Source: Amoebophrya sp. A120 (Eukaryota; Protista; Dinoflagellata). From it: a stretch of 64,000 nt of DNA. This document shows, piece after piece, positions 16,910 to 51,870 of the stretch (positions are counted from its first letter, which is position 1; every line of letters begins with the position of its first letter). The translations under genes and the position numbers were made by a program. The notes under the pieces were generated by a model. The model was not told where the DNA came from. It saw only the letters and a list, made by a program, of their open reading frames with translations, and did not search any database. The DNA is taken from assembly GCA_905178155.1 (NCBI GenBank), contig CAJINV010000008.1:2294001-2358000 (forward strand), in the 5' to 3' direction.

Positions 16910-19900
16910 ATGTCATCACAAGAACGCACGGCAGCCTCGGCGAGGAATAAAAATGCCACGATCGCAAGGCATCTGGCGTCTTTGCAGAAGGAAAGTTGTG
17001 CGCTGTCGAGAAAAATCTTCGCTTCGAAGTTGAAGTACGGACTAAATCACTCCGTCGTCGGCTTGAAGTTCCTCAAGAAGGAAAACAAAGAGTCGAGGCA
17101 TTTGTTGGGAACGTGCTTCTTACCTTTGATTCCAGAGGAGCATCACCCGAAACAAGACGACGAGGAGGGTGCGAAAAGCTTTCTCCTGAACGCTTACCAG
17201 GACCGAGCAGCGGAAACCAGTCCGGGGTACGGTACTCAAATTGCGGTGTTCGATCTGGTTTTGGATGAGTGGCGCAGTTTTCTTCTCGACAACGTCGAGG
17301 AGTTCCAGGTCCTGCAGAAGGTCGGCAAAGCGAAGGAGTTTATCTCGCACCACATTTTCCCCTCCGGGTTTGTCGACGATTTTTCAGACGATTTCGTTGA
17401 CTTAGGAAAGAAAACCGAGGAGGATGAGAGCAGTAGCCGAAGTGCATGCGGTCCTGGCGGTTCCGGGAACGGCCACGACACCACGCGGAAAAAGGTGACG
17501 CCGTCCGAGCGGACGACGGTGCTGGCGCGATTCCTGGCGAAGTTCAAGTACCTCGGAGGCCTGCAGAAGGAAGAGGAGAGACGGAGTGACCTGCCGGTTT
17601 GGGCTGCTGCAGCCGCAGGAGCAAAGGGGAATAAACCAGGAGACCTCCGTACGGAAACTTCGACTGCGCGTGACAAAGTGAGAGGCAAGCGCGTGTACGA
17701 CACGCTGCGGAAATACGCGGCGGAAAATGAGCCGGAAGATGAAGCGCATGATAGTACTCCGGTCCCCGAAGGCGTCGGGGTGTTGCACGTAGACGACATG
17801 CAGCACATGAATAACTACAGCTCTGCGACGTCATCTAGTGGACCAGCGACGTCGGCTGCAGCGCGGCACAACAAAAAGGAACAAACCCAGCTGGAACATC
17901 AAATTGCCAAGGGGCAAGCCCCCGCTGTGCTGAGTAAGTACAAAACAACTTTTAACGACATTTTTGACGCCAACTTCGGCGCTGGCACCGACTTAGAAAT
18001 GTTGGCCGATGACGTGTTGAAAAGTTTCAAAGAAATCGGCGGGCTTTTGCAAGAGGCCAACGACTATGCAAGATTGAAAATTATACCGATCTGGGTCTGG
18101 TTTTGTATAAATGCGCGATGAACTTTCGTTCTTCGTTGTTTCTGACAGGGCTGGAATTGTTTGCTGTGCACGCGAAATAAGTACATGATAATTTGACGTC
18201 GTATAATTGGAAGCCTAGTACGGAAACAACATCTACTTGTGGTCAGGCTCCGATGGGGTCTGGAACAAGTGATTGGTCTGTAAACTCGAGAATCAGATGA
18301 ACCACGTATGGATCATGTGCATTTTTCATTTTCCAACCCAGATCGTTTTTATCAGTTGATACCGACGAGCACTACAGCGGCAACAGCGATTTGTACACGC
18401 AGTACGCTGCGACGCTCCAGCGAGCTGGGTTTGTTGCGTTTGATGAGGCACGCGGAACGATGGATCAGAGTCAGACCATCGCGATCGTGAAGGAGTTCTT
18501 TCAAATCGCCGGACGGGACAAGGACCAGCTGGTTGTGCACGTGAGCAGCCATGCTGGTCCGACCGGGGAGGCGGCGACGAGGAACAGCGAAGAAGAAGAA
18601 GACGCGCTTCCCCTGCCGGTCCCCGACGCGCTGATTGAAAAGCAGCGGTATCCGCAGCTGCACCTGGACTACAATTGCGCGCGCTTGATTGCGACGAAGG
18701 CAGCACGAGAAAATAATGATCATGGAGGTGGTCCATCGTCCAGTAGTAGCACACCAGCGGCGGTGGAGCAGTCGTGCTCCCGAACAGCTGCACGGGGGCA
18801 GCAAGTACTGAAAGTGAAAGAAGTGCTGACGTATTTTGTCAGCGACCTGGTCCTCCTTTCGCGCACCGATACGTCCTTGGCCAGGAAGGCCATGGAAATC
18901 GTCCGGATTGCCTACGGGCAATTGTCCCTGTTTTCCCAGCAGTTCGAGTTCGAGTTGATGCGCGACATCGTCTCCAACCGGCAATTTTCGGAATGGTCCT
19001 GGAACAAAACGAAAGTGATCGAGGGAGAGAGGCCGATTTTTCAGCAGCAGGAACAGTACGCACTGGAGCAGAACCGCTACCTGCGCAAGTTGTATTACAG
19101 TGAAAAGTGCCCCCCACCCCCGAAGTTGCAAAAATTTGTGATGCGAAGTTTCCAAATGAAAACTTTTTGTCATGCATGCATGAAAGGAGTATGAATCTTT
19201 CTGATGCAGATTCTAGTCGTGTTTCGCATCGCTTGCATGACAAGCGCCGCTCTTGCTGGGATCTTTTGCAATGCAAATTTTTGCTATTCACGATCGGAAA
19301 TCTGTGATGCTGATACATGCAAGAGGGCGAATGTTTCATTTGGAAAGGTTTGCAATACAAATGCTTTCAAGTTCGGGGGTCGTGGGGGCATTTTTCATTG
19401 TAATAAGTTGCAGAAGTACTTCATCCCGCAGAAGTATCTGAAGACGATCGACCGGAAGAGGGGGAAGGTGATCACGAACTTGCTGCACAAGTTTGTGTGC
19501 AACGACATCGGGTGGCATATGGAGTTCTCAAATGTTACATTCTCAACTGTTACATGAATTTGTCATGCAAAAACACTATCACTCTTAACACGATCAAGCC
19601 TTCTCCGCATGACAACTTCTTGACGCGCTAGATAGCATTACAATCTGCTCCTAACCTGTAATGCAAAAGGCGCAACATTTTCCCTTTCAATTTTGCCATT
19701 CTTGCATTACAAATTTCATGTAACAGTTGAGAATGTAACGTTTGAGAACGCCATATGGCAGCTGTGGCACAGCTACAGCCAGCTCGTGCCCTGGAGCATG
19801 ACGAAGTGGGAACACATATCCTGAGTAAAAACGTACCCACACCAGAGTTGTAATGCAGATTTGCAAAGACAGGAAGACTTGTAATGCGCATCCCCATGAG

Positions 19901-22900
19901 AGCCATTTCCAGTCGTGTTTTGGAATTTGTGATGCTGTGAACAGGATGAGCAGCTGGATTTGTGATGCGGCTGCACTTTCTAACCTGCACTACACTACAG
20001 AGTGCAACTTGTCATGCGTGACTCACAAAACTCCTAGGTTTGTGTTGCAAAATCCCCATCCTGACTCTGGTGTGGGTACGTTTTTACTCAGGATAACACA
20101 AGATTATCACCAACAAGCTGTTCCGGCGAAGCAACAGATACCCACCGGAAGCGGTGTCCTTGCAGAAAATGTTGACCCGGTGGAACTATCGGCGGACGAT
20201 GGAGCTGATGCTCTACGCCGAGGAACTGCAGCAGCTTGCGGACATCCAGTGGTACGATTTGACCAAAATCAAACTCACGAAAGCGACCAGGACCGTGGCA
20301 GTACGGATTGGAAATGAATGATACTTGTTATTGTTTTCGATCTGGGTCCTCTGCTGGAGAGATTTGGCCATCTTTTTGGCGATGCTCGGCCGTATTAAAG
20401 CCTCCAATTTTTTTGAATGCATGGCGCGGAAGCAGAGCCGTGTCAAGAACGACAGAAGCTTGCCTTTATGTGCGCAAGTGCGACTTAACGCGCTAGGTAT
20501 GTGTGTTGAGCATGTAATAGAATAGATTTTCAAATTTTGTATAAATCATGCGTGAGTCAGTGTCAGAGTCAGACTCCAAGTCTGTTTGTCATTGTAACTG
20601 ACATGATGTCGGTCTGTAGGACGCGTATTATTGATGAATTAAGTAAGTACTTTTCTATCTAAGTGGGCTTTCCACACGACCCAGATTGAAGATAGATCAG
20701 TTGCATTTCATAGGCCGGCGCGGTCCGCAACCTGTTTCGGATCAACGTACCTGGGCTGGCGGAGAAGCGTCCGTCGGTGCTCAAGGGAGATAAGCTGTGG
20801 GTGCGTCAAAGCGACAACAATAAGAAGAAAAAGAACAAGAAAGCGACAGCGACTTCTTCCTCTTCTGCGGCGAACAAAACCTATGTTGCGTACGTGTGGT
20901 TCGTGAACATTGATCACGTGATTGCGAGCTTTGACGCCGAGTTTGGCTCCGCGGAGGACTTGGATAACTCCTATGATGTGCGATTTATGCTGAACGATTT
21001 TTCCCTGCAAGTGATGCACGACGCGATCAGGCACCCCTACGTGGCCGAGTGGTTTGGAGAGAATTACGAAAACTTCAACACTTGTGCCGAAATTGCGAAA
21101 AAGAAGGAAATGGAAAAGGTGGTCGCGAGCAACAACTCTTACACCAATAGCGTCTCGGGCCTTGCGGTCGGGTATGATGGGCAAAATCAGCAGTACCAAC
21201 CGCAGCAGATCTTTCACCCCAGCTTCAACTTCTTCGCGCCACAGACAGCTTCTACTACCGCGGCAGCAATCTCGGCAGCGAACCAGCATCTCGTGTTACA
21301 GCACCAACAAACACCAGGTCCCCCATATGCAACAGAGTACCACAATCCGACCTACGCGAGTCTCCCAGGGGCCGGATCATCATCCGCGTACTACGGGACC
21401 AATGCGGTCTACGGAGAAGCCCAGCTTCCGTACAACCAACAGGGTAGCCATACTGTGAGCTACTTTCAACCTGTCGTAGACGTGAATAGCGCGTTCCAAC
21501 AGAATCAAGGCGTCACCACATATAATCGCGTGGTCGTCTACGAGTCCCTATCCTCTACAAAAGTCTATTTTACTTCTACTACAGTGCCACCAATTTCCAA
21601 CTTCTATGAGACTCTTTTGTACTTAATTATTTCGCGTATTGCTCCGTCTTTTGGAAAGCTTATCGGCTTTTTTACAGTGACATTTTCTCTACGGTGCGTA
21701 TGCACGGCTTTTGTTGTCATACAGTGTTGCAGTTGGGCTTAGGATCTATTCTTGGTGGTGTCGTCTGGTAAATAAACTTTTGCAGAGGATACTCGTCTCT
21801 GGACGATCGCGTGGCGACGTACGACCAGCAGAATCGGTGGCGTCAGCCGGAGCTGAATACGGAGCAGAAGCAAGCGGTCGCTATGGTGTTGTGCAAGCCG
21901 TCCGCGCCGGTGATTCTGTGGGGCCCGCCGGGCACCGGGAAAACGAAGACGCTGGTGGAAACGATCTACCAGGTTCTTTACACGGAAGAGCAGCCACGAA
22001 TTCTCGTATGCACGCCCTCGAACCACAGCGCGGATCTCGTCGTGGACCGGTTGATAGATCTCGGCGTCACCCACGACAAGATGTTTCGCTTAAACGCCCG
22101 GTCCCGGGATCTGGAGGACTTGAAAAGCGAATTCCCGAAGGTGCTGTACGGGACGTCCGGGCACGGGTACTGCGGTTCCGATCCGCAAAACCTGCCGAGC
22201 CGCGAGGAGCTCCAGTCCTACAAGCTCATCGTCTGCACGTGTGTCACTGCCAACGTGCTGTTTCAGCACGGTTTTGGGCCGGACGTGACGGGGGTGGGGG
22301 GAGATTCAGCAGGTAGTCAGGGGGCGTATTACGACACGCAGAAGAATCAGTGGGTTCAAAACAGCAGAACAACTGTTGGTAATAAAAATCCTTCCGAAAA
22401 GAAGCTGAGTCGGAAAGAGATTTCGCGATCCGCCAAGAAAAACCCTTACTTCACGCATTTATTGATCGACGAAGCAGGCCAGGCGCTGGAGCCGGAGATC
22501 GCTGTCCCGCTGAAGGTGACGGGCGAAGATTCGGTGGTGGTGCTGTGCGGCGACCCGAACCAGCTGGGGCCGGTCGTGCGCTCCAATGTGTGCAAGAAGT
22601 TCGACTTTCACCACTCGACGCTGCAGCGGATCGCGAAGAAACGGGAGCTGCTGGCCACCTTCATGAACAACAACAAGAAGAAGGGAGGAGGACACCAGCA
22701 GCCGCAGACAGGAACAAGGAATACAACTTCGCGTGGCACTGCCGAGCCAGAAAATGCGTACGCGAACGTGACCGCGGCGACCAGCTCCTCCTATCAGACA
22801 CAGCAACGGGAAACGCAGCGGCAGCGACTCGAACTGCTGAAGAAGGGCTGTGTGTTGCTCCGCGTCTCCTACCGCGCGCACCCGCAGTTGGTGAATTTGT

Positions 22901-25364
22901 ACTCCAGTCTCTTCTACAACAACGCGACCACCTCCTGCGTACATGACCAACGCATGAACAACATATGAAATGCAAAAGTATCGTACTAGTAGAAATCGCA
23001 TGACAAATTTCCTCAGCATGAGAAATGAAATTTGTAATGGGGATTTGACCACCACCACTTGAGAAAGAAACTTGTAATGCGTGACTGCGATTAGTACGAG
23101 TGCGATACTTCTTTTGCACAGGATACAACGCGGGCAGCTACCACAACAGCTTGGAGCAGTTTATGGCGTTCTCAAACGTTACATTCTCAACTGTTACATG
23201 GATTTGTGATGCAAAAACAGCGAATAGGGAAAGGTTGGGCGAGCTTGCAAGTCTCGCATCACATTTAGACGCTGCCTAGCCCTTCGAGACTTTGTCATGC
23301 GAAGCAGCTTGATAGTCTGGCGGCTCATGATCATTTTGCATGACAAATCGTGTAACAGTTGAGAATGTAACATTTGAGAGCGCCATACAGTTTTCCCAGT
23401 TCCGGTACTGGTCCCGAATTCGAAATCACATGGATTTCCCGTTCCTCTTCGTGCACGTATGAGAGTGCACAAGTCGTCTTTCCCGATGCTGTTTCAGGTG
23501 CTGCAGGCGTTGTCCGGCAAGGCAGTGCTGAAATGCAGTGCTTGTCGTTGCGTTTTACTTTTATTTGCATGGCACTACTCCATCAATTTCAGTAGAAATA
23601 CTTGAGCGCCGTCACTCAGACTTAGAGAGAGAAGTTGTGCACTCTGATACCACGTGGAGGGCAAGGAGAACCGGGATTACGACAGCTATCCTGAGTAAAA
23701 ACGTACCCACACCAGAGTTGTCATGCCAATCTGCATGCCAAAAAAGTTTCTCATGCGGAGCCCCATGCGAAAGCGAACCATTTTCTCGCCGTGTTTTGGG
23801 ATTTGTGATGCTAGAATCAGCATGATATCCTAGATCTGTGACGCTTCGGAACTAGCTAAACAGGATTACACTACGAGGACAAACTTGTAATGCGAAACAA
23901 CCAAAGGTGGCTGATTTGTCTAGCGGATTTCCCAGCTTGACTCTGGTGTGGGTACGTTTTTACACAGGATAACAGCCCGAGTTGGTTTAACGATGTGGAA
24001 ATCGAAACCCTGTGGGAGTATTTGACCTCTCTGTTTCAGGAGTTTGGCGAGGGCGATCCGCGGCACTTACCGGGATCGCCGCACTACTTTCCCGGCGGCA
24101 CGACGGGCCAGTTTCTGAAGCCCCAGAGCGTCGGCGTCATTGCGCCCTATCACAAGCAAGTCATGAAGCTGAAGGCGAAACGGATGGCCTATGGCCGCCA
24201 GCTGCACCCGCAAGCCGCCGCTGCGCTGAAAATTGGAAGTGTGGAAAACTTTCAGGGGCAGGTATCTATGTTGAATCATCGGTACTTCTTGCGGCAATCG
24301 TTGTTCGGATAAGTAAAGCTAATTTTTTTCCGTTGGTGCTACGCCATGAATGATAGAAGTTGGAGATGGCATTTGGATTTGCAGTTCCGGACTTCCTGGA
24401 TCATGTTGTCTGATTGTTATTACTTGAATGATTTCCCCCGGTATAGAAACTTCTACGAAACGCTACACAGGAAAACGACGTGATTTTCATGTCGACCGTG
24501 CGCTCGAAGTTCGACGACGAGATCAAGCAGGACCTTCGCATGATGCTCGGCTTCGTCGGTTCCCGGCAGCGGCTCAATGTCGCGCTGTCGCGCGCCCGCC
24601 AGCTGCTGGTCATCGTCGGCAATGGGAAGCTCTTGTCCTTTATCAACTGTAAAAATGTCTGGGTCTGGAAGAGTCATGCTGTTTCTGCATGACACAGAAG
24701 GTCTGGCATGGAAGCTCTAGCATCACAGGTCCCGAGAAGCTTCCGCAATGCCGAACCCGCATGACAAATCCCCCATTTTGGTGACAGAAAGTGAGTAGCT
24801 TTTGCTACCTATGCATGAGAGATTTTTGTGTGTTCTGAAATGCGCATCACAGGTTACATCCTTCCAGACCCAGACATTTTTACATTTCATATCCTTGGAC
24901 CGCTCGTGGAACGTCCTGCTGCGCATGGCCTGTCGCTGTGGCATATCAAAAGTAAAAGTGTCTGGGTCTGGAAGGATGCGAACTTGTCATGCATATTTTC
25001 CATGCCCCATGAGGTCTGGAATGCACGACCTAGCATGACAGGTTTTGCGAAGTCTCTATCATCCCAATCCTGCATGAGAAACTCCCTCCAAAGTTGGTCG
25101 AAAGTGGACAGCTTTTCGCACTCACGCAACACAGATTTCTGCATGATTCGGATTTAGCATGACAAGTTGCAATCTTCCAGACCCAGACACTTTTACAGTT
25201 GATATGGCAGCGTCCACGGGAAGTTGCGGGAGAGCGATTTGAGGCCGCACGAGCAGAGCAAGACCGTGGAGGGCTTTGATTTGGAACTGTTGCACCAGCA
25301 AAACGACCCGACCGAGTTCTTCGCGAACTGCGACCTGCCCTGGCGGAGTGCGGAGCAGATTTAA
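16910..25364 (+). CDS. MOV10/SDE3/Armitage-like UPF1-family (SF1) RNA helicase
   Basis: Reconstructed motifs: LYAEELQQLADIQWYDL, VPGLAEKRPSVLKGD, GPPGTGKT, CTPSNHSAD, LIDEAGQALEPE, GDPNQLGPVVRS, SYRAHP, FPFLFVHVEGKENRDYDSPSWFN, GVIAPYHKQV, GSVENFQGQENDVIFMSTVRS, RLNVALSRAR. 11 introners plus GT-AG introns ~20301-20713 and 24262-24470. Possible alternative last exon 25448-25557. Confidence 0.92.
18065..18361. mobile_element. Introner, degenerate family A-like
   Basis: CGATCTGGGT/ACCCAGATCG inverted pair; TSD ACGAC/CCGAC; frame restored. Confidence 0.8.
19093..19405. mobile_element. Introner, family E
   Basis: TIR TATTACAGTGAAAAGTGCCCCC; TSD AGTTG. Confidence 0.95.
19518..19755. mobile_element. 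Introner, family D
   Basis: TIR TATGGAGTTCTCAAATGTTACATTCTCAACTGTTACATG; TSD TGGCA. Confidence 0.95.
19817..20095. mobile_element. Introner, family C
   Basis: Perfect 32-bp TIR TATCCTGAGTAAAAACGTACCCACACCAGAGT; TSD ACACA. Confidence 0.95.
21549..21791. mobile_element. Introner, family B-related (old)
   Basis: TATCCTCTACAAAAGTCTATTT / AAATAAACTTTTGCAGAGGATA; TSD eroded (GTCCC/CTCGT), but removal of element plus 5 nt restores the frame. Confidence 0.8.
22964..23125. mobile_element. Introner, family B
   Basis: Family B TIR; TSD CAACA/CAACG. Confidence 0.92.
23162..23387. mobile_element. Introner, family D
   Basis: Family D TIR; TSD CAGTT. Confidence 0.95.
23458..23649. mobile_element. Introner, family F
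   Basis: TATGAGAGTGCACAA / TTGTGCACTCTGATA; TSD GCACG/CCACG; rebuilds FVHVEGKE. Confidence 0.9.
23687..23971. mobile_element. Introner, family C
   Basis: Family C TIR; TSD ACAGC; rebuilds DYDSPSWFN. Confidence 0.95.
24641..24891. mobile_element. Introner, family A
   Basis: Family A TIR; TSD TCCTT. Confidence 0.95.
24944..25204. mobile_element. Introner, family A
   Basis: Family A TIR; TSD TGGCA. Confidence 0.95.
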
Positions 25365-26107
25365 AATTTGAAGTTTTGGCATCATGCACTCAACATGATA
25401 CTGATAGATAAACGAATGCAATAACTAATTTTTCCACGATCACGCAGAACAAGAAGAGTCGAGTGACCTGCTCGACGAGTTGGAACACTTTTGCGGCGGC
25501 GGTGGGGGTGGAGTGTCGCCCGTTGCATTTCGCAAAGTGACTGAAGATATGAAGTGACTTGCTGTGCTACCTCAACCTCAGAGCTCCTTGTTTTCAGGAT
25601 TCATGTTCTCGCTGACTGAGTGGCACGAATCCGAATACCTCTGCTGTTCTGCAGCTATTCGCTCTTCGTCGCTTTGTCCTGTGATGTTGAGATTTCGCCG
25701 TTTTTGATAGCATCGCGTCTCGACCGATATCTTCATCACGAGTTGAGGAAACGGAGAGATGATCGACGATGAAACGTCGATTGCATGTCAACTTAAAAAA
25801 TTATCGCTAGTGGAGTCGTGTGCTGTGGTACTATGTATGACGAGCATCAACTAGGAGGGCACTCCAGCGAGGTTGCAATGCGATTTCAGCAGCTTAAGGC
25901 AAAAGAATTGCAAGCGCGTGTATGATTATGTGAGTATCGTGAGGGTTGTTCATTTAATCCGCGGGCGCAGAAGATCCGGATTTCCACACTGAAAAAACAT
26001 TCGCATCGAGGTCCTTGAGGTCTGCCTTCGACTTGCATCTTGGAAGAGACCACCACGTGGTTTCAATCGAGCAGTTCAACAAGAGCAACCAGCGTTGTTC
26101 AGTGCCA

Positions 26108-27718
26108 ATGCGATTACTTTTCCCTCTCTCGCTCGCAATCCTTCACGAATCAGCCTACTTCGTCGCGACTGCCATTTCGGTAGAGAACAAGGGACCAGTT
26201 CAAAAAGAGGCTGCTGAAGCGCGATTTGGTCGTCGCGGCGAGACACTAAACGATGACGCAGTTGGCGCCGGCGTACCAGCACAGCGAAACCAATTGGAGC
26301 CCACTTCGATTCCTCGTGTCGTCGAGGAGGACGTAGCGAGATCTTCGGAGGTCGTGGTGGCAACGAAGGCTATCGACCGGGATCTTCGAGATTCCGCAGC
26401 GAATAAAGTATCACGACCCGTCCGCACGGAGTTCGAAGAGAGGAGCAGCTCCACGACTACTTTTCTGCACGAAATTGATGAGATCGGGAGCGTGCGAGGC
26501 AAGATCAAGAAGAAGCGTGTACTTTCAACAGTGGACAACGGGAACAGCACGAAGACATGGAATCCAGGAGACAGCGATAAAAATGCAGCACCAGATGATT
26601 CTGCTCCACGACCACGCGAGAAGATCGAGCAAGGTGGTGGGGCAGAGGACGTCGAACCGCAGCAGCCTCTGATGCGAAAAGAGCGACCAGGAAAATTGGT
26701 GTCGGGACTGCGCGAAGTAGAAGGTGATTTTGAAGTCGATGACCAGGAACTGCAAGATCGCGAGCAGCAGGGGACTGTTCAGCAAGCTTCGTCAAGTAGG
26801 ATGCAGGACCGAAGTACACCTGGCGTAGGACGAGCTGGAGCTGCAGGCGGGACATCAGGAGATCACGCAGTCTCGGAGCCGGAGGGGAACCACGCTGTGC
26901 CTGCAACTGACGAGATAATGGAAATGCAGACAGGTCGTGATATTGAGGACCTTCCGACGGCGCCGTGGCAACATCTCGACGACAGCGACAACAGTAATCT
27001 CGCAGAATTTGGACATCGGGTTCGTGTCTCACAGGCAAGCCGCATTTACGAGTGCCCTGCTGATTCGAAACCAACCTGCACGGCAGAGGACTGCTACAGC
27101 ACGCACATGAACTCCCATAGCGGGGAAAAAGAGACAGGAGCGTACAAGCGCGGCCCCGATGATGGAGTGTCGTGCCACGGCGGAGAAGACGCAGCCCAGA
27201 CCCAGAGTGCTGGAGACCCCTACACGCTCTCGAGCATTGAGACACTGCTCTCAGAGTGCAAGGGCCTTTGCGACGATATGCGCGCCGAATTTGGGGCTCA
27301 CATGTGTGCGGGTTTTGCCGCCCGCCACTCCAGCGGCCAGCATTACCAGTGTCTTATATACCATCGGCCGGTCCAAGTCCAGCGTGGGGGCACGTCCGGT
27401 AGCAAGTTTTTAAACGCGCATCTCACGCTCTGGTGCGATCCTGACGACCCAAACGTCTGCGACCCAACGACCACCACTACTACATCAACGACCACAACTT
27501 CTAGCACGGCCGCCCCAGGCGGCAGTGGAAAGAGTAGCGGAGTAGATAACAGCACAAATAACGCGTCAAATAAAGAGACTGAGACGGCGTCACCCGGAAC
27601 TTCGGGAGACGCAGCAGCGGCCGAAAGCGGCGGCCTGCTGACTCCGATGAATATGGCAATCGCAGCGGGAGTCATCGTCGCGGGGGGAGCGATCTACTTC
27701 AACTACTTTGCGGTCTAG
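26108..27718 (+). CDS. Secreted or membrane-anchored surface protein with a Cys-rich PAN/apple-like module
   Basis: Intronless ORF. Hydrophobic N-terminus (MRLLFPLSLAILHESAYFVATA), ECKGLC...CAGF...CLIY cysteine spacing, Thr/Ser stalk and C-terminal hydrophobic helix (MAIAAGVIVAGGAIYFNYFAV). Confidence 0.7.
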   Translation: MRLLFPLSLAILHESAYFVATAISVENKGPVQKEAAEARFGRRGETLNDDAVGAGVPAQRNQLEPTSIPRVVEEDVARSSEVVVATKAIDRDLRDSAANKVSRPVRTEFEERSSSTTTFLHEIDEIGSVRGKIKKKRVLSTVDNGNSTKTWNPGDSDKNAAPDDSAPRPREKIEQGGGAEDVEPQQPLMRKERPGKLVSGLREVEGDFEVDDQELQDREQQGTVQQASSSRMQDRSTPGVGRAGAAGGTSGDHAVSEPEGNHAVPATDEIMEMQTGRDIEDLPTAPWQHLDDSDNSNLAEFGHRVRVSQASRIYECPADSKPTCTAEDCYSTHMNSHSGEKETGAYKRGPDDGVSCHGGEDAAQTQSAGDPYTLSSIETLLSECKGLCDDMRAEFGAHMCAGFAARHSSGQHYQCLIYHRPVQVQRGGTSGSKFLNAHLTLWCDPDDPNVCDPTTTTTTSTTTTSSTAAPGGSGKSSGVDNSTNNASNKETETASPGTSGDAAAAESGGLLTPMNMAIAAGVIVAGGAIYFNYFAV

Positions 27719-28170
27719 CCTACAGCTGATGTCGTTTCTTCGAGTAGAAAAATCTCTCTGATTTGGTGAGTATGGAGCTCGAGGCCGAGATGATCAGAAT
27801 GCGCAGTTGTGTCTATCGTCTTGCTTAATTTTGATAAATGGAGTAGTCTGTAGAATTTGAAGCTAAGAAGTACTCACTTACTTAAGTACTCGCGTTACCT
27901 GTAAGTCACGGCAGAAATTGCACTCTATTTTGATTTTTTTCGGTCATGGGCTGGCATTACGAAGGCAGCAGGATGATGCGACAACAGAAGAAACTATATG
28001 ACAAAAATGATCTACATCTACATGTATTTGGGTGGTCTCAGAAGCGAAGAGAGACCCACCTACTGACGTGCTATTCGATTATCTTATCAACATCGCCAAC
28101 GCGATATTTTTCGTTTTCCGCCACTGTGTTCAACCATGGCCGGACACCCACCCGTTCACCTTGCTGGATA

Positions 28171-28299
28171 CCCACCCACCCACCCACCCACCNNNNNNNN
28201 NNNNNNNNNNNNNNNNNNNNNNNNNNNNNNNNNNNNNNNNNNNNNNNNNNNNNNNNNNNNNNNNNNNNNNNNNNNNNNNNNNNNNNCACCCACCCACCC
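28171..28299. repeat. (CCCA)n microsatellite spanning a 94-N assembly gap (28193-28286)
   Basis: CCCA repeats on both sides of the N run. Confidence 0.9.
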
Positions 28300-29063
28300 G
28301 CTCGCCCAAAATCCGTTGTCCCCTCCTACGTGCAGCAGAAGCGGGCAACACTCCGAGATCGAAAAGTATGGGAAAGTCTGGCCGGATGAGATTCTACTTC
28401 TTCAAGCAAGGAGCTATACTTTCTCGAACTCTACGTGTACTAGCAGTAGACCGGTCGGTAGTTTTTCCCAATTCTCGTGTGAGCTCGATCTTCTAGAACA
28501 GTTCATCTTTGTTTGTTTGTTTTTGTCTCCCCGTCGGTCTACTCCGAGGTTTCTTGTTTTCTATCTTTGTGGCTTCTCTGGCTGTGCCTGTGTCTCGTGA
28601 CATTGAAGCGGAGCAGGCTGAAGCAAAAGGAAAAGTAAGAAAGAGGAAAGACCTTCGCAAACTGCAAGTTTTCGTCCCTTCTATTACTGCATTTAAGATG
28701 AAGTGCTGCTGGTTGTGGGCGTAAGTAGGACTTTTTCGTTCAAGATGGACGAGAGACCGAACTTTGGGTTGTTTGCCACCTACCTGGGTGCGGTGGTCGT
28801 CTGCTTGGTGATTCGCTTCCTTACCATCTAAGCAGGTTCGTTTCTACGGACGAGAAATGAAGATGCTGGTACGACCTTCGCCGTTTGAGTGCGTCGACAA
28901 GCTGGCGGCTTATGTGGTCCACTATGCATCAACGTGGTCCACCTCGCGGTCGTGGTGCGACTGTGACTGTGACAGCGAGCAGGGAATAAAAATTGCACCG
29001 CACTGCTGACAGACGCTTGTGAAGATACCTGCACATGCAGCAATATGCTGATTTCCGTCTTCG

Positions 29064-32000
29064 ATGCCCGTGCCGCCAAAACCCAGCGGACGAGGATGTT
29101 GCGAGGTCGTGGAAGCTGTACAAAATGACAAGCCGGCCTTCGAATCACAACCACCAATTACAACTACATGTAGTACCGGTCTTGCGTCCCAGAACTTCAA
29201 CTTGGTCCCGCAAAAAGATATTCCCATCGTCCCGCAGCAATCCTGCAACACCGCAGCCGGCTCATCTCCAAGCGGTAGAAGCACTATCTGTTGTACGACT
29301 ACCGCCAGCACATCGCGAGAGGAAGCGCAAGACCAGGTTCCTCCCACACCAGCTGCGGGCAAGGCGAAATCGTGGGCGTTGCCGAGGCCCGAATTTTCAG
29401 TTTCCGCTGAGGCGCATCTGTCACACTTCCGTGCGAAAACCCTCTCCAAGAAGAACTCGAATCCTCTAAAAAGTTGCTTTCGTGCAACTTCTTCTGCTTC
29501 GGCATCCTCGTCCGGCGGCGCAGCGAATAGGAGTGTAGTTAGAACGGACTCGTCGTCGACCTGTGGTTTGTCGCAGGACATGCCCAACTCGAACTCCTCC
29601 ACACAGCAGCAAGCCCGCGACCGTGAAGTCCAGCAGGAGCCCTTCTACTGGAGTAAGAGCAGCCGTGTTGTAGACCACAGCTGCGGGGGCACGACGCAAC
29701 AAGGTGGCAGAGGACTAGAGAACATCTCAAGAATACAAAAATCCGATGGAGAAGATGCGTGCGCAGCTGGGAATGTCGCAACCTCGACGTCTGCATTCAT
29801 CCAGCAGGCGGCTCCGAAGAATTGTGCCATCAGTGGGGAGACAAGTACGTCGTCGACGACCACCATCACATCTTCGCGGAGCACGGCTGCCTCGTCGTCA
29901 TCCACGACTACCCTCTCGGGCACGCAGAGAGCAACGACGAATACGTGCAGGAACCCGCCGCCCCCGGGTGACGTCAGTCTCTTGCAGCCCGCTTCCACTC
30001 TCGACCCACGAGGACCTGCCGCAGCGCGGGCACGAGCAAAAGGGGTCGTGACTACACGAAGTGAAGATGCCACGACACAACAGAGCCAAGTCCGGCCTGC
30101 TCTATCAGCGTCGACACAAGAACCCTGCAGCTCTGGAAATGCACGAGCGACAGTTGCGCCCACGTCGTCTTCTCCTCCGAAACCAGGGAATTATGCCGCT
30201 GGTCCCTCACTGGCGCGGGCGCCCACACCCAACGGATCCTCCACGAATACGAGCAAAAATCTTCCTCGGGGCAAAAGCAATGGCATGAGCCTGCACCTGC
30301 TGAGCACCGGGCAGCACCCGCGGCAGGCCGACTTCCAGGCAATGGGGTTATGAGACTGCGCAACTCCTCCTCCCCCTCATTTGTATTGCATGAACAGCAA
30401 TAGAAGGGCCTGCAAGAGTGCAGCTCTTGCATGACAAATTTTCACAGGATTGTTAGTGGTTTTTGGGCTGCCAGAGTCATCTGTGATGCTACCACTCCCA
30501 AGGCGCACAGAGTGGATTTGGTATTTTGCATCACAAATGAGAGGGAGGGGGAGTTTTGCACTGTTATAAAGGTACGTGATGAAGCAGATGAAGGGCCAGG
30601 CCGAAAAGCAGGCCGCCGCACAGGCGGACAGGCAGCGGGTGCAAATGTTGCATTTCTTGAAACCGAGGGGGCAGGACCTCCAGCCGAATTCGCAAATAGA
30701 CGAGGCGGAGGTCCACGTCGATGTTGACCAGCAAAGCGACAGCATTTCTTCGACACGAGAAGGCGGAGTAAAACCGAGCAGCTGCACCACAGCAACGGGA
30801 AAGGGTGTGCAGCATGGGAAGAACGCAGACAATAATCGTAATTCCTCAAGTTGTCGTGCTCACTCTGGGTCTGGCTCTGCATCTGCTTCACGTTCATCAC
30901 CAACTTCGAAAACAAGCACCAGCGCTTCCCCCGCGACAAGGTCCTCCCTTCGCGAGTACACTGTCAGGACGCTGTTGGGCGAATCGCCCCGGACAGCACG
31001 GCTAGCTGCACCGACTGATCCCCAACCGCACCCCACGAGCTGCGAAAGAGAGATTGCAATAGGGGCGCCGAGAAACCAGATCCGGTCCTTCTTCGACACG
31101 TATCATGTTGGCAAGCACCCCGTGCGCAGCTACAGTGCCTTCATGCCCCTTGAGTTGTTGCACTACCGGAAGCACCACGCTGACTGGAACACGTTTTCCT
31201 TATGCATTGCAAAAGTATCGTACTAGTATAAATTGCATCACAAATTTTGGCAAGAAGAAAAGTGGAATTTGTAAATGCTGTTTTACCTTAGGAAGGAGAT
31301 TTGTCATGCATATTTGCAATTAGTACGACTACGATGCTTATTTTTGCACAGGATATTCCTACCGGATCAGCAAGTTGGTCCACATCTTTGTACAGAAAAT
31401 GAGCGGAAGGGAGAGGTGGTATTGTTTTGGAGGTCTGGAATTTTCTTCATTGGTCTCAGGATGTTTGAAGTCTCTACATACGGCAGAAGATGTGTAATAC
31501 AGACGGATGCGTTTGTAGTTCCCATCGCTTTGCAATCTCTTTGTTTGCACGTTTATGAATCAGGCATGAAAAAAGGCAGTATGATGTAAGTTGTGTGCTA
31601 TAATACCAGGCGTATGATTCGTCCCGGCGAGTCCTTCTACGCCCTGGACGGCATGACGGCAGCGGAGCGCTTGGTATTCGCTTCGTATTACCTCTGCCCC
31701 CCAAACGCGGTCTTTTGGCACGAAGCCTTCGCGTTGTTCAAATCCGCCGGGTTTCCGAAGGAGAAGGGCATGATCCAGAAAGTGTTTGAGTTTTTGCCTC
31801 ACTTGCCCCCCTCCCTCCCGGATTCGCCGCGTAAGCCTGGTTCTGCAGAGGAGGCAGCAGCATCAAGCGGAAGTGGAGCACAACCTGCAGCGGGCGGAAA
31901 AAGTTCGTCGGTGTCGCAGGACGATATGAATAACACACGTTGTGGTCGTGCGAGTGAGAACGCGTGCACGAGTTCGAATCCTTTGAATAATACAACAAAC

Positions 32001-35000
32001 GCTGCACCTGCAGGAGCCGATGCCGACCTCCAGAAAAAAGTAGATGAGAAACAAGAGAACTACGAGAGGAAGAAGGATCAAGAAACACGAACTACATCTA
32101 CAGGAAAACAGCCACACCAAGGTAATTCTCGCGACACTTTTCGCTTCCCTTGTCCGCCGGATCACGATTTGCGCACGAACCTCTTCCTGCTGTACCGCCG
32201 GACGTGTTGGGAGCAGCACTTTCGCCTGGGTCTCTGGAACTTCGATCGCATGAGAAGGCGGCTGAAGAGCCGTGGAGATGATAAAAACAGTAGTTCCACC
32301 GCAACACTGCAACGAGATCCGATAGATGTAGAAAAGGAAAATCAAAATCTTCACCAAGCAGGAGCGGAAAATAAGGAAAGTCCACCTGGGAGCTCCTCAA
32401 AGGAAAACTTGGACCCGAATAAATTGTTGGTCGGGAGCTCCTCTTCATCTGCAAGTCCAACCACTGGGAAGAAGAAGAAGAAGACTGATCCCGACGCGGC
32501 AGAACGGATAAAAACCGCTTCAATGAATAATTGCAACGCCCTGGTGGCCCAGCCCTCTGCGAGCTTACGCCCGGCAAACGGCGCGAGTACTAAAGCAACT
32601 TCAGCGAAGAATGCTTCGAAAAAAGCAGCTGCAAAAGCAAAAACGGCGAGTAAGAACGCCAATAAAAAAAGTGCGAGTGCTTCTACTACCAAGAAGGACA
32701 GTCCCGAAGCGAAGCAAGCAGATGAAAAGACAAAGAGTTTTTTGTTCTCAGAGAACAATGCGGCCGCCACAAAAACAAATGCGGCAGGTGGAGCTGCCGC
32801 GGCTCCTGTGAAGAACCACGAGCAACAAAAGGCACGAGACTTCTGCCGGAAGACATCCTCTTCAAGCAAACACCTTTCTACGGAAGATGAACACGACCAT
32901 CAGAGTTCTTGCCAGAACGTTCTTCACGCCAGCACTTCCACTTCCAACGCGACGTCTTCGCCGCACGAGTTGTATGATCCGCTTTTCACGACGATAGCGT
33001 TTACGGATCCGCGAAATTATCGAAAGACCTGGATCAGCACTGGTGAGTTCGAAATGACGTACTTCATGACGCAAGTCTTGCTCCGGGTCCGGTCCATGAT
33101 CATTGAGGAGGAAGAGATGGGGCCCCGGTGGGAGTTTCTCCTGGAAAAGCCCTTCCTTTCCCGCATGCTGGAGCACGTGATCGCGTATTTCGACCGCACG
33201 AGACCCATTTTGTTCAAGGACGCCGACCAGTCGGCGCTGCAGGGAGGAAAGCTGTTGCTGGTCGAAAGAGATCCTTTTGAGGAAGAGATAGACAGAGTTT
33301 TTGCACTAGAGCAGAAAAATAATAATCTACAACCCGATGCAGGTGGTCCTGCAGCGCCACCAGCGAATTCAAGTTGTAAGGGAACAACTTCGCTACATTC
33401 CGAGAATTCATCTAGGTGCACACAGAAGAACAAAAGTACCGAATTGCTGCTGGCGCCTGAACGTGGAGTAGACGACGAGGACGATGAGGATGATGAAGCC
33501 GATTTGTACAAAGATCGCAAAGATGGGAACCGCTTTCGCTTTCCCGATCCGGAAGAATTTTCGGACGCTACGGTCTGGGATTTTCTCCAGTACAACTACT
33601 ACCGCGCGCACCAGTTGACGCTGAAAAGCATCTTCGAGCTGAACAAAATCGGCAAGCAATACGCGAGCAAGTTCGAGAGCCATTTTTGTCCCAGGTACTC
33701 CGTGTTTTCCATCGACCCCGTGCCGGAGGTGGGCGAACCCGAACATTATTTGGAGAGGGACCTGGAGCTGATGGTGTTGAACAGTCGTCGGAAGGATGGC
33801 CGTGCTCCGCGTGATCATGTCAGTGGTTCGACGACGTCCAACTCGGAAAGGACCGCAACGAAAAAAGCCAAAACGATGAACGAACAGAAAAATGAAGCAG
33901 AAAATCAATCTGAGGCAAAGAGTGAAGTAGATTCTAAAAGTAGGAACAAGGTGGACAAGGACAATAGTTTTTACAAAAATATCAACAAGTTCAACCACGC
34001 GGCCACGCACCTCGACATCCCGCGGGAATACCCACGTGGAAAGTCGTTTGTCGCTATCGAAGAAGTCGTGCTCGGCCACGACGGAAGCTTTGTGGAGCGA
34101 AGCTACCTGAACAACAGCGGGCTCGAGCAGGCGCCGGACATTGACAAGTTGCTCGTGCGCAGCATGCCCGAGGATCTCAAGGGAACAAGGAAAGAAGTAG
34201 AGACCAGTAGAGCGGAAAACAAGAAAGAAGCCGAAGGACCACGAGAAATTCAACAAGTGATCTGGTAACCAAATGCGTGCGCGCGCGCGCGCAGAGCGCG
34301 CGCCGGCCCACGAAGCCGGCGCGCGCGCTCTGCGCGCTTGCGATATTGCGTAGCAAACGCAGCGCGAAGGCAGTTGCCGTTACCATATAGGGCAACCGCC
34401 GGGAGGCGTGAAGGTCAGGGAAATGGCCAGAAATGAAGTGGGAGAAGGGAAAAAAAGCGGACCAGATGGGAAAATGGCCAGGAGGGCAAAAATGTCGCAA
34501 AAACGGCAGAAACCAAGCGGGAGAAGGTGAAAAAAGAGCATTTTTGCGGTTTGGCCCACTTGATATCTGAAAAATAGACGGACTGTTTTTTGCTCCGCCC
34601 GCTGGGCAGCTGCGTTGGAGAAGCAGGCCCGCGACCTGTCCGGAAGCCTTGGGCCGCTTCGTAACTGGAAAAAGTTGGAAAAAAATGGCAAAAATTTGCT
34701 TCATACCGTGGGCGGAAGCAATCGTCGGATTTTGTCCAGATCCCCCGGGCCACTTGGAAAATGGGAAAAGAAGAAAAATCTTGCAAAAGCGCAATCCCCC
34801 CGCAGGCTTCAAAACTGCCAGTCAGGTGGGGGCGGTGAAAATGTGCAGGTCGCCCGGGCCACTTGGAAAATGAAAAAAGATGAGAAATCGCGCAAAAGCG
34901 CAATCCTTCCGCAGGCTTCAAAACTGCCAGTCAGATGCGGGCGGTAAAAATGTGCAGGTCGCTGGGGCCACTTGGAAAATGAAAAAAGATGAAAAATGGC

Positions 35001-38000
35001 GCAAAAGCGCAATCCCTCCGCAGGCTTCAAAACTGCCAGGGAGATGCGGGCGGTAAAAATGTCCAGGTCGCCCGGGCCACTTGGAAACCAGAAAAAGAGA
35101 AAAAAATGCGCAAAAGCGCAATCCCTCCGCAGGCTCCGAAACTGCCAGGCAGCTGCGGTCGGTGAAAATGTCCGGAGCCCTTCGGCCACCTAAGAACCAC
35201 AAAAAAGAGCGAAAATTGAAAAAAACCGAGAACCCTCGGCAGGCTTACAAACTGGCCGCCAAGGGCGGTCCGGCGGGCGCGTGGTCGCGCCATACCATCG
35301 GGATTGTGAAAAAAAAAACGCATTAGAAGCGGGCGGAGGGATGTCACAAAATCCCTATTTGCCCTGGTTTGTGGGCACAAATCCTGCACCTCCGCCGCGT
35401 CTGAAATGCCCGATTTTGGTGGCCCGGAAGGGTCCGCGGAGATTCGGCTTTCCGCATACCTTCTTGGCCAGGAGGCCAGTTTGTCATGCAGGGGGCTAGA
35501 AAGGATGCCCCGCTGCGAAATAGCAGACCGGATTTCGCCTTCAATGCTTATCGCAGGAGCCTGCGGGCCGCCGCGGGCGACAGTAGTTGTCCGCGGCCCT
35601 TTAGGGCCGCGGGGAAGTGGTGGAGCCCGCGGCGGCCCGCAGGCTCCTGCGATAAGCTTTGAATGCGAATCCGGAAGCCCCCGATGACCCAGATACCTTC
35701 CTGGCCAGGGGGCCAGTTTCTCATGCAGGGGGCTTGAAGAAGAAGGAGTGGGACTGTAATCAAAAATAAATAGCGCCAAAGCGCGGCCCGCAGGGCCGCG
35801 CTTTGGCCGCGCGGCTGGTTAGGCTTTCGCGCTGGTTAGAATTTCGCGCACGCATTTGGTTACCAATATCGCCCTCCGGGCGCGACCTTCATAGCAGGAG
35901 GTAGCACGACAGGTCCTGGTAAAGTAGCACGCGAAAAAAGAAGGTCGAATAAGACGCCCGCGGAAATGAATTCTTCCGTCAATTGTAACAGAGCCATCAC
36001 TCAAGAAGGAAAGAAAACCGATTCTTCAAGAACATCCAGCGTGCGAGACAACAGAGATGCAACTGGTCGCGCGAGGACCGCAAAAGCCTCCTCTTCGAGT
36101 TCGGCGGTTCTCTCATCTCTCGACGAGGAACATCAAACAGTGTGCCCTGCTGCTGAAGAAGCTGCTGGAGAAGGACAACATTCGAAGGTTTACTTGATAC
36201 TGGAGCACCACAACAGTAAGTTCAAGTCTTTCGATATCCTGAGCAAAAACGTCCCCACACCAGAGTCAAGATGAGGACTTTGCAACACAAACCTAAGAGC
36301 CTTGGACGTCACGCATGACAAGTTGCATTCCATAGTGTAGTACAGGTTAGCAAGTGCAGCCGCATCACAGATCCATATGCTTATCCTGTTCACAGCATCA
36401 CAAATTCCAAAACACGATTGGAAATGGCTACCATGGGTATGCGCATCACAAATGTCCTCGTCAACGCAAATCTGCATGACAACTCCGGTGTGGGGACGTT
36501 TTTCCATATGATATTCGAAAAAGAGGACCGCAGCTACGACAGTGAGGGCTTCTTTCGGAACACCGGGTTCTCGCCCCTGGACCACCCGTTGCTTGTCCGG
36601 GCCTGCGAAACCCCCCAAAAACTTGGCAAGTGCCCGATCAACCGGCTGGAGCGGTATTTGATACACGGAAACCACGTGGAGCAGTTTTTTCCCACCGGCC
36701 TAGACTGCGTCTTCAATTCGGAGCTCGACGGGCTCATGGAGGAGTATTTCGCGAGGCTCAAAACCGAATTGGAACATCAATTGGTAAGCTACCAACCTGC
36801 CCCGTCTTCGCTACTAGCAAAGGCGGGGCAGGTTGTTGCGGACACGGGACGAGCAGTAGTTCCTGACGCCGGAGGAGAGGCAAAAAACGCAAATGCCTCC
36901 TCCTGTGGGCGGGGTCCTCTCGTGGGCACTACGAGTAGTAGAACCCCTGCTGAAAATAAAATGTCGGGCACCACGACGCAAGAATGTCAAAATTCTATCC
37001 CTGTTTGTTCATCTGCAACGTCCCGTCCTACTCCTACCAGTACAACTGCCGCCTCTGCAAAAAGTGCAATTATGTCTAATGTCGCTCCAGCAGGAGCACC
37101 AAATCCAAAGCCGGCGAATTGTACTACATCGTCGACAACGATCACTAGTACGACCAGGCGTTCCTGGGTCGACCCTTTAATGTCCATTTCCATTTCGCTT
37201 TCCCACTCGCAGACTCTGATGCAAAGCACTTTCGGCATTGGCACGGGGCTCAGCGAAGACAAGGACCGGCGTAACCATTACTCGCACAAGTTCGCCGACC
37301 TCATGTTTCGCCCACGAATGCCGGACCCAACCGCCCGGTTACGCCCGGACATGGTCGAGTTTGCGAGAGAACACGTCAAACACTGCTGCGCAATCGACTA
37401 CGGGTCGACCGCGGGAAAGCCTGACGATTGGTTGTCGGACACTGACTGCAAAGAAATGACGGACACGCTGCTACTGCTGCTCCACAGCCGCTTTCAGATT
37501 CCGAAGCACGAACAGCCCACCACGATGTCCGTGCCCTTTCCGGCGACGTTCTCTGTTGCACCGCCCGCCAGCCACGTTGCTGCAACACGAAAAGATAGTA
37601 CTTCGGGGTCCTCTGGTGTGGTGGTCGCAAAGCCAAATAAAGCTCCGCCGGCTCCTGTGTCTGCGCAGGGTAAGAACAATGGTCAGATTGTTGCGCCGTC
37701 GGCGGGACGGAATGGCTCTGGCGAGGAGAACATCAAATCTTTTTCTGCCGCGCCAGCTGCTCATTCAGGACCGACAATGTCAAGAACAAGTGCTGTGTCG
37801 TCTTGTGATGACCTCCGAATCGGCACACACGTCCAGAAAGGACAGGAAACCTCGCTATCCTCAGGAAAATCTTCAGGAAGAACACCGACATTAGCATCAC
37901 CCCAGCAGGGCGGTGCGCAGGGTGTGCACACCACAGTGCCAGCAGTTGCAAAAAACCAAGAAACAGTTTCTGCGGCCAGTACTTCTAATACAAGCAGCGC

Positions 38001-39195
38001 TCCTGTCGGAAATGGATTAGCTGCACCATCCTCGGCGGCACCCGGAGTTGTAGTAATCACGCCAGCACATCTAGCACCAGCAAAAAAAGTTTCGGAAAAC
38101 GAAACTTCTGTGCCGTCGCAGCAACCTCCGCCGCCACAGCAGGCGCAAATAACTGGCGGGTTTTTAGGGGCCATGCGGTCTCTGTTCTCGGCGATCATAC
38201 CAGGCTCAAACTCGAGTTCCCCTTCTGACAAAACGAAAAAGAGTTCTGACAAGACGCCTGGTGCCGCACAGGAAATGTTTGGTGTCACATCGAAAGCACC
38301 CCCGAGTGGTGGTGCGCCATCGTCGAGCTTGAGCAACCCCGAAACGACTGCAATTAATGGCGGGAAAACGAAAACAACCAACTTTTCGGCCCATCCCCCT
38401 GCACCCCCAGAGCAGGCACGGAAAAAATCAGAAACCACGACGCAGACGAGTGCCACCAGTTCTCTTACGGATCCACTAGTGGCTGGAGCCGCAGTCGGGG
38501 ATGATCTTCCTGAGTCTCAGCAGATGTTTGCAGCTCTAGTCTTGGAAGAGGAGAAGAAAAATCTTCATCCCAGAAGACTAGGCCCGAATCATGACGAAGC
38601 AGCACCACATGTTGCAGCAGCAGATGTGACCTTTGCAAAATCGCAAGACAAAAACTCTGCCCCGAACGGCCAGGATTTTTCTTGTACTTCAAACCCAACG
38701 CGTCCCGTGCCGCAGAGCTCATCTCGTGTAAAAGAACCCTCCGACAGGAGATGCGTCACTTTTGACGAGACCACGCCTGAAAGGCAAGAACAACTTCCGC
38801 TACCCTCCTCGCGGCAACCGTCGAAGGTCAAACTGCGGCAAGGAACGCCCGGCAAGTGTCTGCTCGAGAGCTCCCCAGAGACGTCCCCCAGTCCGGCGGG
38901 ATGTGGGTCCTCCACCACTAGCAGCGTGGCCACGTCGCAATCAAGTTCTTCCACCGCCAACGGCTACAACCGGTGCAAGAAGTCCCGGAAGCGCGTCCAA
39001 ACAGAAGACAACCTCCACGAAGCCGGGGGCGGGCTGCACCGCGATGGGATTGCGGTTGCATTGGATTTTTCCGAGGCGGGCTCGTGCCGCACCTGCGGAG
39101 GGGGAGGCGAAGATGCCAAAAATGCGGAAAGTAGCTCACAGAAGACTCAGAGGCAGCCTTGCGAAAGTAACCCGACGAGGTACACCCTGTTTTAA
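29064..39195 (+). CDS. Very large hypothetical multi-exon protein (possibly two genes, split at the 1.6-kb TIR element)
   Basis: Exons 29064-30348, 30574-31200, 31361-31415 and 31610-~34260 are in frame (2 introners, GT-AG intron 31416-31609). The open frame resumes at ~35840-36234 and continues 36519-39195 after another introner. Confidence 0.6.
30349..30568. mobile_element. Introner, family F-like
   Basis: TATGAGACTGCGCAACTCC..CTCATTTGT / ACAAATGAG..GGAGTTTTGCACTGTTATA; TSD GGGGT/AAGGT. Confidence 0.88.
31201..31355. mobile_element. Introner, family B
   Basis: Family B TIR; TSD TTCCT. Confidence 0.93.
34263..35865. mobile_element. 1.6-kb non-autonomous TIR element with internal ~109-bp tandem repeats
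   Basis: Perfect 21-bp TIR TGGTAACCAAATGCGTGCGCG; at least 4 tandem units at ~34747-35190; internal hairpins at 35547-35657 and 35776-35806; no clean TSD. Confidence 0.85.
36235..36513. mobile_element. Introner, family C (reverse orientation relative to 19817-20095)
   Basis: Family C TIR; TSD TTCGA; the body is a diverged reverse complement of the 279-bp copy at 19817. Confidence 0.95.
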
Positions 39196-51382: not shown

Positions 51383-51870
51383 ACACTTGACACACATAAA
51401 GAGGAGGCTGTTGGTCTCCGGTCCTCGGTCCTCACTCCATCACGAGGCAATATATGAGGAGATAAGAAGGGAGAAGCACCAGACACATAAGAAGGAGGTT
51501 GTTGGTCTCCGGTCCTCGGTCCTCATTCCATCACGAGGTAATATATGAGGAGATAAGAAGGGAGAAACATCAGTCACATAAGAAGGAGGCTGGTGGTCTC
51601 CGGTCCTCGGTCCTCACTCCATCGCGAGGTAATATATGACGCGATAAGAAGGTAGAAGCGCCAGACACATAAGAAGGAGGGCGTTGGTCTCCGGTCCTCG
51701 GTCCCCACTTCGTCGCGAGGTAATATATGACGAGATAAGAAGGCAAAAGCGCCAGACACATAAGAAGGAGGCCGATGGTCTCCGGTCCTCGGGCCTCAGT
51801 TCATCTGGGGGCAATTAATACGCGACGGGCCAAGAAGGTAGAAACAACAGACACATACGAGGGAGGTTTG
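51383..51870 (+). repeat. Subterminal tandem array with 91-bp period (left arm)
   Basis: TGGTCTCCGGTCCTCGG recurs at ~51411, 51502, 51594, 51685, 51776. Confidence 0.92.

Follow-up and report, generated by a model that had tools for sequence, protein, structure and literature searches.

The stretch considered here, hereafter the window, comprises 64,000 nucleotides of the dinoflagellate Amoebophrya sp. A120 (contig CAJINV010000008.1, positions 2,294,001 to 2,358,000 of the forward strand; positions below count from its first letter). It holds 31 short elements of one build, which reads TAT...ATA, with inverted ends and a flanking 5-base duplication. These are the introners published for Amoebophrya A120 (PMC7789003), not another element. 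Their orientation relative to the host gene is unbiased, about 50:50, both in the window and in 82 loci of a second assembly, JACKZZ01. Where RNA-like contigs and transcript-based proteins allow a check, both orientations are removed from RNA, while the DNA holds the elements.

Anatomy and Origin of the Elements

A pattern scan found 26 of the window elements (it gave 0 to 4 matches per shuffle in 20 shuffles), and five more were added by eye. The duplication is exact in 22 of the 31, and in 180 of the 216 elements of the other loci. Mismatches between its two copies number 16, 8, 4, 5, and 8 at positions 1 to 5, position 1 being the commonest. The inverted ends follow the consensus TAT-N4-TG(C/T)AAAA.

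Two descriptions fit this anatomy. Terminal inverted repeats, a target-site duplication, short length, and many copies are the marks of miniature inverted-repeat transposable elements, and the window elements have all of them. The elements also have the marks of A120 introners: a TAT start, seven looser bases and then As, a junction repeat within 3–5 nt, and membership in repeat families that are absent from transcripts, the last as judged from an RNA-like contig and from deposited proteins that cover 16 of the 31 elements. The available text of the original description gives 29,850 copies of about 240 nt with 5-base direct repeats, whose inverted repeats open with TAT, followed by seven looser bases and a run of three or more As, with no dinucleotide signature (PMC7789003). 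The elements are best explained as non-autonomous DNA transposons, short and bounded by inverted ends, that sit either way in Amoebophrya genes. Their anatomy suggests that a cut-and-paste transposase inserted them at target sites opened by a cut with a stagger of 5 bases. The same text reports no transposase in A120 (PMC7789003), and part of a later paper reports introners of the terminal-inverted-repeat type with open reading frames in this strain (PMC12130899).

Opposed Copies and Their Host Genes

The window elements include five families, F1 to F5, and an element is named here by its first position, with its orientation in brackets. The preliminary description of this DNA drew attention to 36235–36513 as a reverse-complement relative of 19817–20095, and the alignment bears this out: 19816–20103 and 36227–36514 are 85% reverse-complementary over 288 nt, and the two elements, both of 279 bp, align end to end. 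The F1 element at 19817–20095 (+) has a perfect 30-nt terminal inverted repeat and a 5-base duplication. It lies in a helicase gene and is absent from the deposited helicase, P0004, as is 23687–23971 (+), which has the same orientation; 3658–3945 (+) is a third copy of that orientation. The F1 element at 36235–36513 (−) is opposite to all three, yet it lies in a + strand frame.

The other opposed pairs that had been named are likewise reverse complements, at 72–84% by blastn. In F2, orientation A is represented by 8046–8307 (+), 24641–24891 (+), 24944–25204 (+), and 40868–41130 (+), of which 24641 and 24944 are absent from P0004. Orientation B is represented by 41179–41441 (−), which is opposite to 8046 (81%) and 40868 (72%), and by 59966–60227 (−), which is opposite to 24944 (84%), lies in a purple acid phosphatase gene, and is absent from the deposited phosphatase, P0001. 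Only 48 bases separate 40868 from its opposed neighbor 41179. An element with F2-type ends, 4853–5104 (−), has orientation B and clusters with a sister family. In F4, 19518–19755 (+), absent from P0004, is opposite to 23162–23387 (−) in the same helicase gene, also absent from P0004, and to 48753–48988 (−; 83%) and 60278–60512 (−; 80%), the last with a corrected length of 235 bp. When 35 nt are stripped from each end, the interiors of opposed copies match at 0.72–0.85 in the opposite sense versus 0.52–0.58 in the same sense; an element compared with its own reverse complement gives 0.43–0.60. Since the stripped interiors match in the opposite sense only, the orientation is real and not an artefact of the terminal repeats.

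As had been claimed, the host frames are all on the + strand: removal of each element plus five bases gives long + strand frames of 558, 920, 1568, 654, 1023, and 1035 codons, and removing six or seven bases instead breaks the frames in the same six genes. The frame test is not discriminating for 13966 or for the gene with 48753 and 49033, and it is weak for 40868 and 41179. Two of the host genes have recognizable products. A MOV10/SDE3-like RNA helicase gene (16910–25365, +; 1675 aa) contains 12 introners and one GT-AG intron (24262–24470), and a purple acid phosphatase gene (58874–62889, +; 1026 aa) contains four introners, namely 59966, 60278, 60906–61014, and 61094–61402. The predicted host frame of 36235 spans 35966–39195 (+) and has no family assigned; its predicted protein has no database match, no deposited counterpart, and no Pfam family.

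Orientation Relative to the Host Gene

In the window, the families F1 to F5 split 3:1, 4:3, 4:1, 3:1, and 2:0. The majority orientations total 16 of 22 (16:6), versus 15.0 expected at 50:50 (15:7; P 0.36). The F3 copies run both ways within a single gene, where 8345–8498 (−) is opposite to 8783–8924 (+); it is also opposite to 22964–23125 (+), 31201–31355 (+), and 42684–42832 (+). The F5 element at 19093–19405 (+) has the same orientation as its partner at 49033–49337.

A second sample was obtained by scanning for the end motif of one family, which gave 142 loci on JACKZZ01 contigs; the 82 loci of at least 1500 bases were used. The 142 loci do not overlap the window outside the elements. The same introner families are present in this assembly, which is classed with metagenomes, at up to 96% identity to window copies, and a comparison of orthologous loci might yield presence/absence differences. 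The 82 loci contain 216 distinct elements, versus none in shuffles. A codon model assigned the host strand for 142 of the 216 elements, versus 48 and 64 with shifted removal, and the assignments were consistent in 36 of the 39 loci with several calls.

The preliminary description had asked for a genome-wide count; in these loci, no strong bias appeared. The four largest families in the JACKZZ01 loci split 27:24, 7:8, 10:8, and 8:7, and the pooled families with a window member split 53:56 (interval 0.39–0.58). In a stricter subset, one family stands at 8:3 and a small family at 7:2. Same-family neighbors within a locus, compared without any strand call, are alike in 13 cases and opposed in 15. 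Opposed copies are up to 96% identical. The available text of PMC7789003 contains no orientation count ("strand" has no matches, and the passages with "orientation" concern gene order). Among openly accessible papers, we found neither an orientation count nor a mechanism test for Amoebophrya introners.

Removal of Both Orientations from RNA

The deposited A120 helicase (P0004) and phosphatase (P0001) equal the element-free translations exactly, with 100% identity across 16 junctions. Since transcripts underlie the deposited gene models, the proteins are indirect evidence about RNA. The phosphatase motif GDFAYD is split in the DNA by 60278, and it is intact in P0001 and in the homologues P0002 and P0003.

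Two sequencing runs bear on the matter more directly. Run X3 is RNA-like, with coverage of some genes and hardly any depth on the rest, and its label as RNA is a guess; run X1 is DNA-like, with even depth and exact contigs across intergenic DNA. An X3 contig skips 302 bases at 18065 and 248 bases at 21549. It also skips 1261 bases between 19087 and 20716, which is exactly the sum of four elements and four times five bases, so that 19817 is skipped by exact length sum. X3 depth is zero at 19621 and 19652, inside 19518, and at 23314 and 23330, inside 23162. Thus both of these opposed F4 copies, which share one gene, are missing from X3. The length of X3 record 11 fits the loss of all later elements (predicted end 25577), by length alone. 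X1, in turn, carries 18065, 20302, 21549, and 23458 within contigs that match exactly and have no gaps, at a depth of 42–45; the deposited protein is without all four, and the RNA-like contig skips three. It follows from the absence of both opposed F4 copies from X3, and from the retention of four elements in X1, that both orientations are removed and the DNA keeps the elements. The claim that an introner works in both orientations thus stands, given the removal of both F4 copies and the near-even count.

These four elements have no assigned strand. They are the degenerate introner 18065–18361, skipped in the RNA-like contig and intact in the DNA-like one; the degenerate introner 20302–20712, which starts with TAC and has poorly paired ends, and is still removed in the same register; 21549–21791, kept in DNA-like record 2, in which the two copies of the duplication disagree at positions 1, 4, and 5; and 23458–23649, intact in DNA-like record 3 and absent from P0004.

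For other opposed copies, removal from RNA is a prediction. At 36235, the frame suggests removal: a 5-base join leaves 131 open upstream codons, versus 4 and 12 for other joins, with the caveat that there are in-frame ATGs inside the element. For 40868, 41179, and 48753, frames under a weak test hint at removal. For 59966 and 60278, it is the deposited protein P0001, in place of an RNA contig, that points to removal. Raw RNA runs X9 and X10 gave matches on element ends only (209 and 2 reads), with no junctions. In X9, about 200 raw reads match the end of 24944 (25120–25205) at 90–95% and continue into one foreign flank; they derive either from an abundant RNA that retains a different copy or from DNA.

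Position of the Cut

Because the duplication copies of 21549 mismatch at positions 1, 4, and 5, its joint locates the cut, at 21548–21795. In X3 record 10, 21547 is followed directly by 21796: four bases come from the left copy of the duplication and the fifth from the right copy, and no base is shared. Other junctions narrow the choice. At 20302 the RNA-like contig resumes at 20717, and at least four left bases are kept. To give the deposited proteins, one or more left bases must be kept at 18065, at 21549, and in the phosphatase gene, and no more than four at 21549 and at 22964, the latter with a duplication that differs at position 5. The removed piece is therefore N + TAT...ATA + NNNN, a register that one junction demonstrates and four others fit. 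On the RNA, the cut is polar, lying one base outside the repeat on the 5′ side and four on the 3′ side.

The published text mentions four bases of the repeat on the upstream side and as many as two on the downstream side, which anticipates the 4+1 register (PMC7789003), and the figures of that paper may already show it. In its Table S4, the nine commonest A120 motifs have only xT- starts, and the nine of strain A25, whose repeats begin with TTA, have only TT- starts (PMC7789003). From the table and text, then, two different repeat types appear to give U at +2 and A at +3 alike.

Hairpins between short direct repeats are a classic setting for jumps by reverse transcriptase. Jumps between the duplication copies could make splicing only apparent, and gene models built from transcripts would inherit the error. 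We consider such an artefact very improbable: the conserved helicase and the phosphatase GDFAYD motif are intact only after element removal, the 21549 joint has no shared base, and RNA-like depth is zero in the interiors of 19518 and 23162.

The internal eliminated sequences of ciliates have TA-starting, transposon-like ends, are orientation-free, and are lost precisely from the DNA, leaving one copy of the duplication. The preliminary description offered DNA-level excision of this kind as one mechanism; nuclei that are transcribed would then lose the elements from their DNA, and the RNA would lack them from the start. The TA-starting inverted ends and the orientation neutrality of the introners are indeed typical of DNA elements; moreover, contigs hide rare alleles, and the DNA evidence is one run and not every life stage. 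Against this, that run carries 18065, 20302, 21549, and 23458 intact, in contigs unbroken through elements that are missing from the deposited protein. The second assembly keeps 216 elements, and the search for empty sites that had been proposed gave 0 of 214 joins in its loci, a test of little power. The 21549 joint is a mosaic of two duplication copies, and the introner duplication is a variable 5-mer, unlike the TA duplication of the ciliate sequences. Interiors of other copies are present in the RNA-like run, where DNA carry-over is possible, and Amoebophrya is not known to keep germline and somatic nuclei apart. DNA excision is thus very improbable as an explanation.

Signals and Mechanism

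We propose, with a probability of roughly 0.6, that the introners are removed by a modified major spliceosome that measures from the repeat ends, not from GT and AG. All steps beyond removal from RNA in the N + TAT...ATA + NNNN register we infer. The spliceosome would cut the elements from pre-mRNA by reading marks in the repeat ends. On the donor side, the register would resemble a normal donor in having U at +2 and A at +3. The acceptor-side marks would be a U-run at −15 to −19 and an invariant A at −5 and −7, and the 3′ cut would be set by its distance from the branch A, likely the one at −7, and not by AG. Orientation would be irrelevant because each arm complements the other, so that both sets of marks appear either way.

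This last point bears on an argument made earlier, that the polar signals needed by spliceosomal introns bar splicing in both orientations. The argument fails, for inverted ends place one motif at the 5′ side and its complement at the 3′ side, and polar signals are therefore available on both strands. The associated claim, that recognition relies on symmetric features, is right in that what is recognized lies in the symmetric ends; the step from there to a machine other than the spliceosome does not follow. Among the three mechanisms that had been listed, a highly modified spliceosome fits best.

Several observations are in keeping with the spliceosomal proposal. In the 173 sense-oriented copies, the U-run at −15 to −19 has a frequency of 0.74–0.95, and YTNAY places its A at −7 in 73 copies and at −14 in 54, the same on both strands. 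There is no sign that stem pairing is selected on the sense strand, and 20302 is removed despite its poorly paired ends. According to the available text, A120 keeps 83 of 89 spliceosomal proteins and the U2, U4, U5, and U6 small nuclear RNAs (snRNAs), with U1 not detected; the authors left the mechanism open and suggested an altered, U1-less spliceosome (PMC7789003). Fixed short distances from branch to intron end are described for Yarrowia, Trichomonas, and Giardia in the part of PMC2483917 available, and by analogy the candidate branch A at −7 would be within the range of species with a fixed distance. In Fritillaria, a U2 spliceosome is reported to remove repeat-bounded non-GT/AG introns (available text of 10.1101/2025.08.15.670264).

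Other observations weigh against the proposal. The terminal bases show no preference: the first two intron bases in the 173 copies are GT in 50, AT in 50, CT in 43, and TT in 30, AG ends number 16, and GT-AG pairs number 7. The introners thus lack the GT or GC donor and the AG acceptor of U2 introns, and the T at +2 is fixed by the register. A terminal G and AG normally define the second splicing step. No branch-point consensus is enriched 18–45 nt before the cut, where TNAC and YTNAY are no more frequent than in shuffled sequence, and no lariat or splicing intermediate turned up. Positions 1–3 of the arms (TAT/ATA) were fixed by the search, so that their invariance is partly ascertainment, and the needs of a transposase are an equally good explanation. 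The 5′ and 3′ arms are alike at positions 4–20, and separate donor and acceptor roles might leave an asymmetry there. The exact register, moreover, rests on one fully informative junction, and the splice sites are described as varying relative to the hairpin in the available text of PMC7789003.

The helicase's one GT-AG intron begins with GTAT, like the N + TAT start of an introner.

Complete indifference to terminal bases and full arm symmetry would be natural for a route independent of the spliceosome. In it, a nuclease would read the stem or a repeat motif and cut one base before and four after the repeats, and a ligase would rejoin the exons. Such a route has been left open for the nonconventional introns of euglenids. 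The reading is a serious rival but a less probable one, and it is no more probable as a second machine for the about 30,000 Amoebophrya introns, with any flanks and in either orientation. Most elements have predicted folds with paired ends in both orientations. In the available text on euglenids, the staggered stem, with +4–6 paired with −8 to −6, has a similar geometry, and excised introns are circles without lariats (PMC11282704). The failure to find U1 snRNA in A120, as reported in the available text of PMC7789003, points the same way.

The 173 elements hold 630 copies of a shared motif, GCATNA(C/G)A, versus 10.8 expected. It lies on both strands, and copies of it face each other just inside each end. 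Several families have it, and it is probably a site for a transposase or a splicing factor; on the nuclease route, it could bind a dedicated factor.

The stem itself speaks against the nuclease and ligase. Selection for pairing on the sense strand would leave G-U pairs in excess over A-C, and the 173 copies have 138 and 130; an excess hinted at in the window (15:7, p 0.13) is gone with the larger sample. The sense fold is the more stable one in 19 of the 31 window elements. Positions 4–7 of the stem pair in 45–78% of copies, versus 95–97% at positions 11–13, and 20302, whose first 12 bases are unpaired in the predicted fold, is removed all the same. Since the flanks are direct repeats, their sequence would give no helix of a tRNA-type site. 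The U at +2 and A at +3 recur in a strain with different repeats, and the available texts of the papers on the system name no candidate enzyme.

At positions 4–7, a few haplotypes are found, and these occur at either end within one family.

The 50:50 orientation, the lack of terminal preference, and the one-plus-four register make the removal mechanism directly testable. If the spliceosome is responsible, it can do without both G and AG. If a nuclease and ligase are, there is a second route of nuclear mRNA splicing, and a transposon landing in a gene is silent at the mRNA level. Either way, it is explained how transposons could flood coding sequence at little cost.

Comparison with Known Systems

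The system is not new: a 2021 paper described these elements with their odd splice sites, and introners lying either way are known elsewhere. The orientation count and the 4+1 register are useful additions to known elements, and the real oddity is the N|TAT...ATA-NNNN cut without GT or AG preference. The comparisons below follow the available portions of the papers cited.

In Polarella glacialis and Aureococcus anophagefferens, introners occur in either orientation with near-ordinary splice sites (10.1101/2020.10.14.339549). As in A120, these are transposon-derived introns, inserted both ways, with splice sites formed from the element end and the duplication. They differ in having GT, GC, or GA donors and AG acceptors, whereas the A120 ends show no base preference. 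According to the preprint, they also favor one orientation, whereas no bias is detectable in A120.

Fritillaria borealis has non-GT/AG introns bounded by the inverted repeats of non-autonomous transposons (10.1101/2025.08.15.670264; PMC13326754; PMC11282704), and in this respect resembles A120. Its introns are removed by a modified U2 spliceosome (10.1101/2025.08.15.670264; PMC13326754). Fritillaria, however, has preferred AG-AC and AG-AT ends and a conserved U1, whereas in A120 the ends are unconstrained and U1 went undetected.

The nonconventional introns of euglenids share with the introners a staggered stem that joins the ends, junction repeats, and the lack of GT-AG (PMC11282704; PMC6221363). 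A stem bringing the ends together is predicted for the A120 elements in both orientations. In contrast to the short conserved CAG/CTG pairing and the pyrimidine|purine junction trend of euglenids, A120 has long repeats, a strict 5-base duplication, and no consensus at the junction. Its arms begin with TAT, position 4 of the duplication is a pyrimidine in 72 of 173 copies, and position 5 of the duplication is a purine in 100 of 173.

Other Features of the Window

Rfam gave no match anywhere in the window, including a region of nested inverted arrays at 51357–58536. In this region, 91-bp units at 51357–51887 face 55234–55870, and units of 78–89 bp at 56104–56371 face 58142–58536; the arrays are possibly a large fold-back element. 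Between two genes, a 109-bp tandem array (34733–35277) is followed by a GC-rich palindrome (35528–35674). An assembly gap at 28193–28286 consists of 94 N inside a CCCA repeat. Finally, an exact 36-bp direct repeat (9969–10004 and 11068–11103) flanks a 1.1-kb insert with a small palindrome (10479–10540), and the segment 9969–11103 is a different kind of insertion.

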